Assembly: GCA_963821525.1 (NCBI GenBank) | Contig: CAWGED010000005.1 | Span: forward strand, 960,001 to 1,024,000 | Source of the DNA: an uncultured Gemmatimonadales bacterium | GTDB lineage: Bacteria > Gemmatimonadota > Gemmatimonadetes > Gemmatimonadales > GWC2-71-9 | Reading direction: 5' to 3' | DNA length: 64,000 nt | Shown here: piece after piece, positions 56,508-64,000 of the stretch | Numbering within the stretch: the first letter of the stretch is position 1 | Layout of the letters: each line of letters starts with the position of its first letter | Made by a program: the position numbers and the translations under genes | Notes under the pieces: generated by a model | What the model was told of the DNA's origin: nothing | Databases searched by the model: none | The model's input: the letters and a program-made list of their open reading frames with translations, nothing else

Positions 56508-56888
56508 ATGAGCTGGATCGCTGGCGTGACGGCGGTTACCGCGTTCACCGGCTGCCAGGGCAATCATCAGGTGAGCAGGGACTCGGCCGCGTCGTCCGTC
56601 CCGTCCGACTCACCGGCAGATTCGCTGGCGTTGACTGCGGCCCCCGGAGTAGAGGTGTGGTTTACCGATGCCCGTCAGGCTCACGACAGCGCCGGGAATG
56701 CATGCGAGGAGCGAGTGCTTGAAATCCGACGTGACGGCCGCCGAATTCCTGTACCGCTCCTGTATACCGGAAGCCTTCCTCGGCTGATCAACGACTCTAC
56801 CATAGAAGCGCCGATCTGGCTCCATTGCCGGCCCGGCAACCTCTACCGAGTCAATCTCCACACCGGGTATCCCACGAGGGTGCAGTGA
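56508..56888 (+). CDS. Hypothetical lipoprotein
   Basis: Lipobox-like FTGC; IPVPLLYTG. Confidence 0.55.
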   Translation: MSWIAGVTAVTAFTGCQGNHQVSRDSAASSVPSDSPADSLALTAAPGVEVWFTDARQAHDSAGNACEERVLEIRRDGRRIPVPLLYTGSLPRLINDSTIEAPIWLHCRPGNLYRVNLHTGYPTRVQ

Positions 56889-57853
56889 GGAAGACTCTGC
56901 TCCTCATGGTGCTCATAGCCTCCCGGGCCGAGGCCCAGGGCCCGGGGTTCGAGCTGGGACGGTTGTTCACCGAGCCGGCGGCCACGACCTACCGGATTGG
57001 TTTCACGGCCCCGATCAGTGGACCCTTGAGCGGTGGGATCCATGGGACCTACATGGACGCCGAAGGGGCGATCGGAAACCTCTGGGGCGCCGGGGCCGAC
57101 CTCGCGCTGTTCAAAGGCGGGAAAGCCGGACTCTATCTGATCGGTGGAGTGTCGGGCGGGATGGTCACTCAAGGAAGCGAGACATTCTGGGGTTCGTGGT
57201 CAGGCGGACTCGGATACGAACTATTCCCGTTCAGAGCGCTCTCCCTCGGCGTCGAGGGCCGGTATCGTGCCCTCGGCCCCGGCGACTATCACGGCGTGGA
57301 GCTGGGCTTCCACCTCGGCGTGCAGAAACGGTCGCGCCAGCCAGAGCCGGAAACCAGGACCGCAACGGAACCGGTGCTGTCCTCACCTCCTACCACCGTA
57401 GCCACCCGCGCGACACTCGAGGGCGACGGCGTCTCCAAGGCTGACGCCTCGACCGTTGCATCCGTGGTTCAGACGGCACTCGATGTCATGGGTACCCCGT
57501 ATCAGTGGGGCGGGGACGGCGAAGGAGGATTCGACTGCTCCGGACTCATCCGCTACGCCTTCGCGAAGCACGGCGTCGAGCTCCCGCGCACCAGCGCCGA
57601 GCAGGCGAAAGAAGGTGTGATGGTTGACAAGGATTTCGATCGCATGCGCCCCGGAGATATCCTGACGTTCTCCAACCGCGGCGATCAGGGCATCACCCAT
57701 GTCGGTCTCTACATCGGCGACCACCGCTTCATTCACAGCGCATCGTCGGGAGTCCAGATCAGTGTGCTGGACCCTGGCGACACGTATGGCCGGTGGTGGT
57801 ATCGGCGCTGGATCGGGGTGCGGCGGGTGGTCGCATGGATCGGCGGGACGTAA
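56885..57853 (+). CDS. NlpC/P60 (C40) peptidase with N-terminal outer-membrane beta-barrel-like domain
   Basis: GTPYQWGG, FDCSG, LPRTS, HVGLY, FIHS; N-half has amphipathic beta strands (GGLGYELF, LGVEGRY, ELGFHLG). Confidence 0.88.
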   Translation: MRKTLLLMVLIASRAEAQGPGFELGRLFTEPAATTYRIGFTAPISGPLSGGIHGTYMDAEGAIGNLWGAGADLALFKGGKAGLYLIGGVSGGMVTQGSETFWGSWSGGLGYELFPFRALSLGVEGRYRALGPGDYHGVELGFHLGVQKRSRQPEPETRTATEPVLSSPPTTVATRATLEGDGVSKADASTVASVVQTALDVMGTPYQWGGDGEGGFDCSGLIRYAFAKHGVELPRTSAEQAKEGVMVDKDFDRMRPGDILTFSNRGDQGITHVGLYIGDHRFIHSASSGVQISVLDPGDTYGRWWYRRWIGVRRVVAWIGGT

Positions 57854-59839: not shown

Positions 59840-60874
59840 CTACTGCGAGTGCTGATGTTCGTGGTTCATCCCTTCCATAGGCGCCATCGAGTACCGGTCG
59901 CGCAGCGACTCCATCCAGGCGACGTCCCTCATCCACGCGGTATCGGTCGGCACGATCTTGGGCCAGTCGCTCAGGTTGTCCGGCACAAAGGCGACCCCCA
60001 CCGCTCCCATCGCCCCTCGGACCAGGTCTGCTCCGGTCGGGTTGTTGTACTGCGCCGAAACCCGGTAGCGCCGATTGGCCTTGAGGTGGATTCCGCGCCC
60101 GTAGATGCCGGGTAGCGTGCGTGCGACTCCGTGGATCTTTCCAGTTGAATCCAGGTTCGAATCCAGGTGCAGCACCGTCTTTCCCGTCTCCAGATCCACC
60201 AGCTCGAGAAACTCCCCGTAGTCGTGCATGTGCCCGCCGGCTCCCACGATTCGCCCGCCCACCGGCAAGGTGAATTCGAAGCTCTTGGTGGAAATGCCGG
60301 GCGGCGCGGTGTAAGGACCGGATTCACCCTTCCGTACCTCGAGTGCCACCGGGAGCACGCTCGTGGGCTGTGGGTTCATGTTCTTCGGCATCCAGTACAG
60401 CCGGACGTGCAGGTAGGTGCCGGACATGTCGTGCTCGGTGGTGTTGTTCCATGCCATGTACATCCCCATGTGGAATCCACTGGACATGGGGACACCCACC
60501 GTTTTGGGCACCATCACACTCTTGGTCTCGTTGCCGAAGGCGAACAGCCGCTCCACGTACGGGCTGATCAGCTGCCTGCGATCGAAGTTGAGGAGGGTGA
60601 TGTGATGCAGGAGGCGACGGTTGAGTTTCTGCCCGGTCGAGTCGTAGAGCTCGACGTCGAACCCGCGCACCCACCCATCAACCGGCCAGATGAACTTGTA
60701 GAGCGGGGTGTAGTGGCCCTTCATGTCGTGGCCGGCCATCAGCATCTCGGGCATGGCGGGCATCACGAACGGCCCCAGGACAACGGTCACTTGATGCTTC
60801 GAGGAATCGATCTCCACCCGCACCGTCGGAGTATCGACGGCGATGGCGGTGGCGAGGAGGAGGGCGGAGATCAT
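59840..60874 (-). CDS. Secreted PHM/DBH-like copper monooxygenase-fold protein, paralog A
   Basis: LLHHITL, GGHMHDYG, YNN...GAMG; Met/His-rich tail MEGMNHEHQH. Confidence 0.65.
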   Translation of the reverse strand: MISALLLATAIAVDTPTVRVEIDSSKHQVTVVLGPFVMPAMPEMLMAGHDMKGHYTPLYKFIWPVDGWVRGFDVELYDSTGQKLNRRLLHHITLLNFDRRQLISPYVERLFAFGNETKSVMVPKTVGVPMSSGFHMGMYMAWNNTTEHDMSGTYLHVRLYWMPKNMNPQPTSVLPVALEVRKGESGPYTAPPGISTKSFEFTLPVGGRIVGAGGHMHDYGEFLELVDLETGKTVLHLDSNLDSTGKIHGVARTLPGIYGRGIHLKANRRYRVSAQYNNPTGADLVRGAMGAVGVAFVPDNLSDWPKIVPTDTAWMRDVAWMESLRDRYSMAPMEGMNHEHQHSQ

Positions 60875-60888
60875 CGGGTGTCAGGAGG

Positions 60889-61971
60889 TCACTCGTTGTG
60901 CTCACTGCCCGAATGCTCATGGGCTCCGTGGTCATGCCCACCCTCGCCCATGTCCATCCCCCTCATCTCGAGCGAGGCCATGTCGCGCTGGAAGGTCGGG
61001 TTGGACAAGTCAATCGCGGGCCATTTCGACATGTCGTCCGGTGCGAACAGTCCGGCCATATGACCCATCGCGCCGTTCTTGATGAGTTCGCCGGTCGGGT
61101 TGTCGTAGTACGCGATGACCCGGTAGGGATGGTTGGCTTTGAGCTTGATGCCGGCTCCCTTGATGCCCGGCAGGCTGCGGCTCACCTTCAGCACGCCGCC
61201 CTTCTCGTCCCGGGTCGCGGTCACCTTGGCCAGCTCTTTCCCGTTCGCCGCGTCTTCCAGCCGAACCATTGTCCCGTAGTCGTGCAGGTGGCCGCCGTAT
61301 CCGATGATGCGTCCGTTCAGCGGCACCGAGAACTCATAAGACTTGCTGGACTTGCCCGGGGGAACGTCGAAGGTGTTGGTGCCGCCCACGGTCAGGTTCA
61401 CATCCATGTACAGCGGGAGGACATCCAGCGGCCGAGGATTCTGGTTCTTCGGCAGGTACTGCATCGTCATCCGGAGCCGCACCCCCTCCAGGTCCTTCCC
61501 GGTATCGTTGTGCCAGGCGACGTAGAAGCCGATCGTCATCCCCGAGCGCATCGGCACCCCGATGGTAGCCGGGACCGAGGCGTCTTCCGATTCCGTGCCA
61601 GTGCCGAAGAGTCGTTCGGCCGCCTGGTAGAGCAGTTGGCGGCGATCGTAGTTCACTACGATCAGGTGATGCATGATCCGTCGAGGCAGCAGGTTCCCGT
61701 CCTTGTCGATCACCTCGAGCTTGTAGCCGCGAAACCACCCATCCACCGGCCACTGGAAGGTCTGGACCGGCGTGTCATGCGAGGCCCCGTGATCCATCAT
61801 GCCGTGCATCTCCATCGGCGGCATGTTGGGCAGGTCGAAGCTCCCGGCGGTGACGATGACCTCGTGATCGGAGGAATCCACCTTCATCACCAGGCTGGGC
61901 TCGTCCTGAGGGGTCAGGGAGGGCGTCGCAACCGTGAACGAAGCGAGAAGCGCGAGGGTGACCAGCATCAT
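60889..61971 (-). CDS. Secreted PHM/DBH-like copper monooxygenase-fold protein, paralog B
   Basis: AGGAG RBS; signal peptide; IMHHLIV, AWHN, GGHLHDYG, YDN...GAMG; tail MDMGEGGHDHGAHEH. Confidence 0.65.
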   Translation of the reverse strand: MMLVTLALLASFTVATPSLTPQDEPSLVMKVDSSDHEVIVTAGSFDLPNMPPMEMHGMMDHGASHDTPVQTFQWPVDGWFRGYKLEVIDKDGNLLPRRIMHHLIVVNYDRRQLLYQAAERLFGTGTESEDASVPATIGVPMRSGMTIGFYVAWHNDTGKDLEGVRLRMTMQYLPKNQNPRPLDVLPLYMDVNLTVGGTNTFDVPPGKSSKSYEFSVPLNGRIIGYGGHLHDYGTMVRLEDAANGKELAKVTATRDEKGGVLKVSRSLPGIKGAGIKLKANHPYRVIAYYDNPTGELIKNGAMGHMAGLFAPDDMSKWPAIDLSNPTFQRDMASLEMRGMDMGEGGHDHGAHEHSGSEHNE

Positions 61972-62193
61972 GTGTCTCCTGAACGGAAAAACCCGATCCG
62001 GACTCGACGGGCGCCTGTACTGGTCGGGGAAAATCCTGAGGGGGAAGGGCAAAGTCAAGCGAGCCAAAGGGTAAGCGACGTGGCTCCATCGGCCTACTGG
62101 ACGAGATTGGCTTCGGCCCTAAAGTTAGTGCAGCAATTGTGGTATCCCGGCCTCCGTGTCGGGCGTCGGACTCAACCCCCTCGCAGCTTCTCC

Positions 62194-63111
62194 ATGGTCA
62201 GCGGCCTGCGGCTTTCAGCCCTGTTCGTCTGTACGGTAGCTGGCGCGGCAAACGCCCAGAACCTGTGCGTCGATCGGAACGGGCGCCCGATTTCCGAAAT
62301 CATCGACAATTCCCTGACCAGCGCGGGTGGGGCGGTACTTCGGAATGGAGAGCGGCTGATCCTGTGGAACCAGGCCGCTGCCTCCAAGTCATCCGAAACG
62401 GGTCGGCTTTTCCTCTATCTGCATGAATGCGCCCATCACGCTCTTGGCCACGTCTACAAGTCTCCCGACATGCGGTGGGAGCTGGAGGCGGACTGCTGGG
62501 CCTTCCAACTCCTCGCGGAGGGTGGGCTGGTCAAGAATCGCCGTCTCGTTGAGTTCGAGCGGGATCTGGCCGCGACGCCGGGAGACGCACTCCATCTGGG
62601 CGGCGAGGTCCTGCTCGACAGTCTCCAGCGATGTCTGAGTATCCGCACGGACCAGCAGGCGTGGGTAACCGCACTCAGGGCCTTCACCAGCGCCGCGCAG
62701 GAACGCTTCGCCTCGATACGGGGAGATAGCGTTCCAGACGCTGCATTCGGAACCTACGAATCCCTGATCGACGCCCCGGGCAGTTTCGACTGTGAGGTGC
62801 TCGATCCCGCCTCGCTCCGCTGCCTGCTGTTTGTCTCCCGGAAAGACGGCCCGGCGCGGTCGCGCTACGAGCAACTGGTCAAGATCTTCCGCCGCTGTCT
62901 CCCGTCGCACTGGACCTCCGCCGATCAGCGCGCGCCGTGGGTGGGGCCCGAAGTCCCTGCCGCGCGGCGGCCGGTGCGCCAGTTCCTCGCCCAGGACAGC
63001 GAGAACGGGACTCTCCTGGCCTTGGTGCTGACGCAGCAGGATCGGGTTTACCTGGTGATGCGATCGTCGGAGGATTGGCTGGCTACTGGACCCGGGACCT
63101 GCCAGGGCTAA
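62194..63111 (+). CDS. Secreted HEXXH zinc-metallopeptidase-like protein
   Basis: Signal peptide AANAQ; YLHECAHHALGH and ELEADCWA. Confidence 0.65.
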   Translation: MVSGLRLSALFVCTVAGAANAQNLCVDRNGRPISEIIDNSLTSAGGAVLRNGERLILWNQAAASKSSETGRLFLYLHECAHHALGHVYKSPDMRWELEADCWAFQLLAEGGLVKNRRLVEFERDLAATPGDALHLGGEVLLDSLQRCLSIRTDQQAWVTALRAFTSAAQERFASIRGDSVPDAAFGTYESLIDAPGSFDCEVLDPASLRCLLFVSRKDGPARSRYEQLVKIFRRCLPSHWTSADQRAPWVGPEVPAARRPVRQFLAQDSENGTLLALVLTQQDRVYLVMRSSEDWLATGPGTCQG

Positions 63112-63341
63112 TGCTCCGGTTGAGTCGGTGCGGGAATTGTTGCCGGTGACGGCTCCGTAGTCCGGAGGGCTGCGCATCTCGCCGAGTTTTGCACCACATT
63201 GCGTTATTCCGGTGGGATCTCGAGTCATCAACTCCGCGATTTTCCCCCCGAGGGGTGGGGGGACTGCTCGCGTTTTCTTGATCCGTCTCCGCGGGTTTGC
63301 GTCTGCCGGGGAGGCAGGGGGAAGGTTACTGAGGGGCTGGG

Positions 63342-64000
63342 CTACTGGTCGTGGTGCTCGTGATGCATGTGCATCGAGTCGGGTGCTGCGGTCGCCGCGG
63401 CGCTCTTCTTATCTCGCCCGATACTCTCCAGCATTGCCATGTCGGTGAGAATCCCTGGATCATCGGGATCCAGCTCGGGCCATTTCGCAGGATCATCTGG
63501 AACAAATGCCGCTACGATCAGCGCCATCGCTCCCTGCTTCAGGATGTCGCCCGTCGGATTATCGTAATCGGCCGTGACCCGGTAACGCCGGTTCGCTTTG
63601 AGTCGCAGTCCGTCTCCCTTAATACCCAGTAAACGCGTCGGCACTCCTTTGAGCTTGCCCAGCGAATCGGTCTTCGCCGGAAGGTCGAGCAGGACCTTGC
63701 CACTCTCCGCATCTTCCAGCCGCACGAACTTGGCGTAGTCGTGCAGGTGCCCACCCGCCGCGAGGATTCGACCACCGACCGGCAGGGTGAATTCATAGCT
63801 CTTTGAGGAGGGACCGCTGGGAAGGTTATAGGCGTCGGACTTCCCAACCGTGTACGACACGTCCATGTAGAGCAAATGAATATCCCGCGGCCTTGGCATC
63901 ATGTTCGGCGGCGTGTAGCGCATCCGAACGGTGAGCATGGCGCCGCGAATCTCTTCCGGCTTGCTGTTGTGCCAGCCGATGAAGGTCGCCAGCCGCATGC
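63342..64000 (-). CDS. PHM/DBH-like copper monooxygenase-fold protein, paralog C (5' end outside window)
   Basis: GWHN, GGHLHDYA, YDN...GAMA; tail SMHMHHEHHDQ. Confidence 0.65.
   Translation of the reverse strand, partial: MRLATFIGWHNSKPEEIRGAMLTVRMRYTPPNMMPRPRDIHLLYMDVSYTVGKSDAYNLPSGPSSKSYEFTLPVGGRILAAGGHLHDYAKFVRLEDAESGKVLLDLPAKTDSLGKLKGVPTRLLGIKGDGLRLKANRRYRVTADYDNPTGDILKQGAMALIVAAFVPDDPAKWPELDPDDPGILTDMAMLESIGRDKKSAAATAAPDSMHMHHEHHDQ

Follow-up and report, generated by a model that had tools for sequence, protein, structure and literature searches.

The 64,000-nucleotide window analysed here lies on contig CAWGED010000005.1 (C5; other contigs are labelled C12, C19 and so on) of an uncultured Gemmatimonadales bacterium with a 4.33 Mb genome. 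It ends in three paralogous genes on the reverse strand, A, B and C, which appear to encode exported copper proteins with the predicted fold of peptidylglycine alpha-hydroxylating monooxygenase (PHM) and dopamine beta-hydroxylase (DBH), the animal copper enzymes behind amidated hormones and noradrenaline, respectively. All three carry the motif GGH(L/M)HDY, a later Y(D/N)N..GAM and His-rich ends, as described in an initial annotation, which assigned a His-His pair plus a third His to the copper site CuH, and His-x-His plus Met to the site CuM. The His-His pair and hydrophobic N-terminus that it reported for A and B are also present in C once the sequence past 64 kb is included (445 nucleotides of the C gene lie outside the window). 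Two of its descriptions hold in part: a Met/His-rich loop occurs in each paralog, but the quoted sequence, MEMHGMMDHGASH, is found only in B, and A and C have different Met/His loops; no cysteine occurs in the mature chains, but C has one at residue 4, inside the signal. The N-termini are of export type, consistent with the proposed secretion.

Each of the three pairs among A, B and C is 46% identical in the core. The pattern [GS]GH[LM]HDY occurs four times in the six reading frames of the whole genome, and all four occurrences are family copies, which indicates that the motif is not due to chance. The fourth copy, D (C5:172450-173399), is frameshifted and has Met at the position of the third CuH ligand. 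Several frameshifts in groEL (C5:1024895-1026740) and in an spt-like cluster (C19:157356-159700) suggest an indel-prone assembly, and thus an assembly error is plausible for D. Beyond 64 kb no fourth copy adjoins the cluster; C is followed by the divergent groES-groEL genes.

Table 1. Features of the paralog cluster, by position in the window
Feature	Positions	Strand	Description
Paralog A	59840-60874	-	344 amino acids; short hydrophobic signal, Met/His loop, His-His, Ala at the third CuH ligand position, His-x-His, Met; tail ends in HEHQHSQ
Paralog B	60889-61971	-	360 amino acids; copy chosen for modelling; 14 nucleotides from the end of B to the start of A
Paralog C	63342-64000, continuing to 64445 (C5:1023342-1024445)	-	367 amino acids; Gly at the third CuH ligand position
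B Met/His-rich loop, residues 44-68	61768-61842	-	low model confidence; predicted copper-capture segment
B His101-His102, first two CuH ligands	61666-61671	-	aligned with the His-His of canonical proteins
B Glu127	61591-61593	-	acid; candidate metal ligand or second-sphere residue, from family conservation
B Ala152, position of the third CuH His (PHM H172, DBH H333)	61516-61518	-	from profile alignment and a DBH bridge
B His228-x-His230, CuM histidines	61282-61290	-	from family conservation
B Met302, CuM methionine	61066-61068	-	from family conservation
B His/Met-rich tail	60892-60981	-	predicted disordered; predicted local distance difference test score (pLDDT) <50 at residues 342-360
Gene between B and C	about 62194-63111	+	hydrophobic N-terminus, HECAH (HExxH)

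Predicted fold and copper ligands

Sequence searches of Pfam, NCBIfam and the PDB returned no match for A, B or C. The Pfam families suggested initially as a check (Cu2_monooxygen and Cu2_monoox_C) matched none of the three, and none of 86 family members at E 0.1; rows for nanobodies and dehydrogenases at E 0.1-2 were regarded as chance matches. Searches with predicted models placed PHM on top, in agreement with the fold first proposed. The model of B (pLDDT 81; predicted template modelling score 0.80) had PHM as its top Foldseek matches (E 3.3e-9), and among 48,161 chains it scored Z 15.4 with PHM (root-mean-square deviation, rmsd, 4.2 Å over 240 aligned residues), 11.1 with DBH and 8.6 with the next entry. 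The model of a distant member with Met at position 152 (Met-type; pLDDT 91) likewise matched PHM/DBH best, at Z 17.9. Two tandem jelly-roll subdomains, as in PHM, are therefore predicted; PNGase F-like and viral double jelly-roll proteins were ruled out as nearer folds (Z 6.5-8.1 against 15.4). Among named families, SURNod19 (PF07712) is nearest in predicted structure, with a template modelling score of 0.64/0.77 over 261 residues for the Met-type member, both structures being predicted models.

Ligands were counted in an alignment of 326 of 391 proteins (those of 300-430 amino acids), of which the 322 covering the key columns were kept; residue numbers are those of B. The CuM set is conserved across the family as expected, with His228 in 322, His230 in 321 and Met302 in 318 of the 322 homologs. 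His101 and His102 are each His in 320, and residue 127 is Glu in 317 and Asp in the other 5. In an alignment of 86 sequences (A2), the only invariant columns are His101, His102, His228, His230 and Met302. The corresponding ligands are H107, H108 and H172 (CuH) and H242, H244 and M314 (CuM) in PHM (PMC12164859), and His262, His263 and His333, then His412, His414 and Met487 in DBH (PMC4846438). Because these five columns are what a two-site catalytic core would be expected to keep, they argue for an oxygenase. With about even confidence, we read A, B and C as exported, probably periplasmic two-copper oxygenases with an intact CuM site, a two-His CuH site (optionally joined by Met152, Glu127 or the loop), copper capture by loop and tail, a blue-copper electron donor and a non-peptide substrate.

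The CuH site does not have the full HH...H set that was first proposed: the His-His pair is there, but the third His is Ala in A and B and Gly in C. To locate its position, ten canonical Cu2_monoox_C proteins from Gemmatimonadota were aligned with the family profile. In the best alignment (hhalign probability 96, E 4.7e-9) Ala152 of B lies opposite the canonical His, which in turn aligns with DBH His333 (E 8.7e-5; chain offset 39). Among the 322 homologs, 161 have Met at position 152, 143 have Ala, 11 have Gly and 7 have some other residue; none has His. His154 was rejected as a substitute; it is His in only 181/322, is Asn in A, and matches a non-ligand His that follows DBH His333. On a tree of 116 representatives, 12 changes between Met and a small residue were found at position 152, at least 6 of them on well-supported branches, and Met152 is conserved at 90% or more in the Met-type alignment. 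From these sequences, position 152 looks like an optional ligand. Loops with three or more His/Met are found in 136/143 Ala-type and 54/161 Met-type sequences. A replacement of the lost ligand by the loop is not claimed, given a null result in independent pairs (n=6; median p 1).

The same ligand pattern could belong to a non-catalytic periplasmic copper buffer or chaperone built on a PHM scaffold, in which the His-His pair, the His-x-His-Met set, the loop and the tail just bind Cu(I). The third CuH His is missing throughout and position 152 has changed repeatedly, tails with at least two His are present in 256/322 homologs, and the copper microRNA miR398 targets plant Nod19, a structurally close protein (PMC3882225). 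Nevertheless, no copper-handling family was found among 38 neighbour proteins scanned at close loci, and only 2 of 66 neighbour proteins scanned at 20 distant loci are copper proteins. In addition, the conservation of five exact catalytic ligand positions and an invariant acid at an identity of about 30% would exceed what a buffer needs. We regard the buffer as a somewhat unlikely explanation.

The models also bear on the hinge between the two domains. The lowest rmsd values of the B model were with closed forms, at 3.2 Å (6ala_C), 3.6 Å (5wja_D) and 3.8 Å (4zel_A), against 4.2-5.0 Å for the other PHM rows at Z of 15 or more. The Met-type model had rmsd 3.1 and 3.6 Å to closed forms (Z 17.9 and 17.7), and open forms reached at most Z 16.0. 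The structure 6ALA (H108A PHM) and chain A of DBH are described as closed, with the two ligand sets within about 4-5 Å (PMC6123673), and an open-to-closed binuclear mechanism is presented alongside the canonical one in a later review (PMC12164859). For the present family, a closed hinge bringing CuH near CuM is only a hint from modelling. If the hinge stays closed, ligands from both domains may together hold one copper or other metal in a single merged site, giving an oxidase, a peroxygenase or other non-PHM chemistry. Both models do fit best the closed H108A form of PHM, where the ligands of CuH and CuM come together on a single copper (PMC6123673), and the invariant Glu127 could be a ligand; yet the two near-invariant histidines, together with Met152 in the Met-type members, are more ligands than one copper needs. 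A merged site is thus considered unlikely.

Distribution, age and selection

At E 0.001, 1191 homologs of B were found among 5187 candidates, and those with names are annotated as hypothetical proteins from Gemmatimonadota. With a profile built from 86 members, matches were found in 153 of 301 genomes of this phylum, including 110 of 125 in the family to which the window genome belongs. The proteins form an unnamed, widespread Gemmatimonadota family, and its gene is a near-core, unannotated gene of an abundant soil lineage. A language-model search also pointed to a cluster of look-alikes in which Nitrospirota is the most frequent phylum. No match came from a metagenome scan queried with a single distant member, and a plasmid search gave one chance match only, to an insertion sequence gene. 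Among the matches listed in a search of the open literature, there was no description of this family or of bacterial PHM homologs without the third His. A 677-residue protein (P0122) consists of two complete Met-type family domains in tandem; fused forms of greater length were not found among 8000 scored candidates, a result that carries little weight.

The initial annotation called the family gene-amplified, which is correct in a local sense only. Among 80 related loci, three copies were found in 3, two in 6 and one in the rest, many of the contigs being short. In a quick tree, B groups with single copies from other genomes rather than with A or C; a recent amplification was therefore rejected, and the array is read as old paralogs kept in few lineages. 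The ratios of nonsynonymous to synonymous substitution were 0.047-0.114 for A (three orthologs), 0.059-0.171 for B (orthologs in related genomes) and 0.111-0.128 for C (two orthologs). All eight ortholog pairs, from three related genomes, thus fall between 0.047 and 0.171, which corresponds to purifying selection. A hydrophobic N-terminus was found in 297 of 313 scored family proteins, and a Tat-like motif in none of them.

Neighbouring genes, donor and substrate

The neighbours at close-relative loci are housekeeping genes. Among 82 such loci, groES is present in 56 and an NlpC/P60 gene in 76, and on these grounds a copper-resistance operon was rejected. The NlpC/P60 gene of the window (56846-57853, forward strand) has a predicted outer-membrane-like N-terminal region joined to the NlpC/P60 domain. 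The gene between B and C is a possible metallopeptidase from its HExxH motif; it has no Pfam or NCBIfam match, and nothing ties it to the copper-protein system. Just outside the window, a sigma70-like site (TTGACA-16-TAGACT; L001:9453-9480) ends 7 nucleotides upstream of the ATG of C, which has no Shine-Dalgarno sequence, so its transcript is possibly leaderless. A degenerate CIRCE-like repeat lies upstream of the divergent groES. Small shares of the stretch were found in 24 sequencing runs; in the 4 examined, short, low-depth contigs cover the genes and their neighbours alike and cannot show transcription.

More specific neighbours were found in the sister clade. A cluster of spt-like, GNAT-like and reductase genes adjoins a family gene in 4 of 20 loci chosen for taxonomic spread regardless of spt, and in 23 of the 97 genomes with both genes among the matches listed, a family gene lies within 12 kb of the GNAT-like gene of such a cluster. 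Two arrangements occur: convergent in one taxonomic family, and directly upstream and co-oriented in another. The genes spt, bCerS and cerR are reported to cluster in bacterial ceramide synthesis (PMC11334938), and the clusters found here resemble them, the bCerS and CerR labels being taken from gene order. Family genes in the 14 spt-linked loci that were fetched are all Met-type. Within three genes upstream of the family gene, a co-oriented plastocyanin-like lipoprotein gene was found in 9 of these 14 loci (directly in 6, one or two genes away in 3). The loci were picked for their spt link and come from one taxonomic family; shared ancestry may therefore explain part of this association. In the window genome, spt-like, GNAT-like, reductase and PAP2 genes are followed by a plastocyanin-like lipoprotein gene (C19:161649-161981), and the whole cluster (C19:157356-161981; L159) likely serves sphingolipid synthesis; no family gene lies alongside it. 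The GNAT-like gene was found in 188 of the 301 genomes of the phylum. The spt and cupredoxin links thus offer leads for the sister clade, but bear on A, B and C only indirectly.

Two other settings of Met-type genes were observed. In L148, L149, L157 and L158, a Met-type gene heads a co-oriented run that adjoins the spt cluster and comprises genes for a HAD hydrolase, a nucleotidyltransferase, a class III aminotransferase, a CDP-alcohol phosphotransferase, a Gfo/Idh/MocA oxidoreductase and an LPG-synthase-like protein; this run is a candidate lipid head-group pathway. In L128, L130 and L131, Met-type genes lie inside an apparent pterin-linked C1 cluster (PTPS-like, RimK-like and formyltransferase-like, labelled mostly by eye).

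The spt links raise the question of whether the whole family, with A, B and C, acts in the periplasm as a sphingolipid hydroxylase, on ceramide or on its head group. Besides the linkage in two arrangements described above, late steps of ceramide synthesis in Caulobacter are reported to be periplasmic (PMC11087976). Against this, the linked copies all belong to the sister clade, which is about 30% identical to B, the link is absent from all 82 close-relative loci, and the spt cluster of the window genome has no family gene. In one taxonomic family, 9 of the 12 genomes with a family gene lack a match to the GNAT-like gene at E 1e-30. Moreover, the spt match falls below the NCBIfam cut-off (535.7 against 640), and the neighbouring ceramide labels depend on gene order. 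A sphingolipid role for the whole family is, in our judgement, quite improbable.

Gly-extended peptides had been suggested as substrates. R240 of PHM anchors the peptide carboxylate (PMC12164859); the equivalent position, two residues before the first CuM His by PHM numbering (R240/H242), is Gly in 286, Ser in 29, Ala in 4 and Thr in 3 of the 322 homologs. Since it is never Arg, peptide amidation is unlikely. A true bacterial peptidylglycine monooxygenase that starts amidation, which the structural match to PHM might suggest, is very improbable, considering also the missing third CuH His and that no NHL- or PAL-type lyase was found among the neighbour proteins scanned, a set that did not take in every open reading frame or the rest of the genome.

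Proposed mechanism and comparison with known systems

Under the two-copper oxygenase reading, the unfolded chain would be exported by the Sec route, as the hydrophobic N-terminus and the lack of a Tat motif suggest. The Met/His loop and the tail may then capture Cu(I) and pass it to the core. By analogy with PHM, O2 would be activated at the intact His-His-Met CuM site. A second copper would sit on the His-His pair, with Met152 completing the site in about half of the family; in A, B and C, Glu127 or a loop residue might complete it, or it might stay incomplete, and a closed hinge, weakly predicted, could bring this copper close to CuM. Electrons would probably come from a periplasmic blue-copper lipoprotein rather than from ascorbate, a proposal drawn from the gene order of the sister clade and from the presence of such a gene elsewhere in the window genome; the structurally close SURNod19 group, which includes cupredoxin fusions, was counted in its favour. 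The reaction may be the hydroxylation of a substrate other than a Gly-extended peptide, for which an envelope lipid is the sole lead from gene context.

Several points weigh against this reading. The main difficulty lies in the CuH site: the H172A mutant of PHM is reported to have about 5% activity or less and a 12,000-fold slower H abstraction (PMC12164859), and a site with Ala or Gly is thus hard to reconcile with PHM chemistry. The register of the third ligand depends on the best profile alignment; single-clade profiles give weaker alignments (probability 47-92), in which the His falls one strand further on. The first register was preferred because it has the best score and keeps the strand order of the B model, and no column from 103 to 227 has His in more than 181/322, so the absence of the third His is independent of register. 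The independent pairs gave no support for compensation by the loop. With regard to the hinge, both models are metal-free, the Z-scores of B are tied between closed and open forms (16.1 against 15.0-15.9), and the closed structures of PHM and DBH contain a single copper and are interpreted by their authors as loading intermediates (PMC6123673). As for the donor, no match to a cupredoxin or to spt was found in 82 loci around close relatives, and the blue-copper link comes from one taxonomic family, where it may be inherited gene order.

The mechanism of PHM and DBH is itself disputed, between separate coppers 11 Å apart with long-range electron transfer and a transient closed binuclear site (PMC12164859). 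H172 is central to this dispute because its removal slows H abstraction so strongly. The present family, large and under purifying selection, offers natural Met, Ala and Gly at this position, in some cases within a single genome that carries tandem paralogs. With their small chains, free of cysteine in the mature part, A, B and C should lend themselves to expression better than the animal enzymes do. If they are active, the family would show which ligand sets suffice and provide a new oxygenase scaffold. It also offers a clue to what this near-core, unannotated gene does in a soil lineage, and to the function of its structural neighbour SURNod19. A bolder proposal, which we hold to be improbable, is that PHM-fold oxygenases lacking H172 act throughout the phylum with a closed binuclear copper site and a blue-copper lipoprotein as reductant, and hydroxylate envelope lipids, for example bacterial ceramides. 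If true, the enzyme class would gain its first characterised bacterial branch, and the open-to-closed mechanism a natural test.

Among known systems, rat PHM (1PHM, 1SDW and the closed mutant 6ALA) is the closest in structure. It shares the predicted two-domain jelly-roll (closed form Z 16.1, rmsd 3.2 Å) and the order His-His, His-x-His, Met, and is also exported. The family is only about 10% identical to it, has Ala, Gly or Met in place of the third CuH His and lacks an equivalent of R240. A, B and C further differ from PHM in being bacterial, in having no cysteine in their mature chains, in their Met/His loop and tail, and in having no lyase neighbour among those scanned. The catalytic core of human DBH (4ZEL) has a similar fold (Z 15.5, rmsd 3.8 Å to the closed chain A), and the H-N-P that follows its ligand His333 resembles the M-L-H-N-P of Met-type members; unlike DBH, the family has no DOMON or dimerisation domain and no His333 equivalent.

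SURNod19 (PF07712), comprising plant Nod19 and Actinomycetota homologs, is an exported group of unknown function, some members of which are fused to a cupredoxin. By sequence, 1 of 86 family members matches PF07712, at E 0.0095 and under the Pfam cut-off; a PF07712 search matched 0 of 151 Gemmatimonadota genomes, and no positive control was matched either. The heme c-fused bacterial Cu2_monoox_C (PF03712) proteins have a homologous core according to the profile alignment given above. In these proteins the third CuH His is retained, and a CxxCH heme domain is present in 9 of the 10 that were aligned; the family has neither. The window genome also encodes a canonical PHM-like protein of this kind (C12:88867-92145; L117; 473 amino acids), which has the full set of six ligands and carries a CxxCH heme domain at its N-terminus. 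As the three-His CuH site is a defining feature of PHM and DBH and is absent here, A, B and C are best described as built like PHM and DBH without being members of that class.

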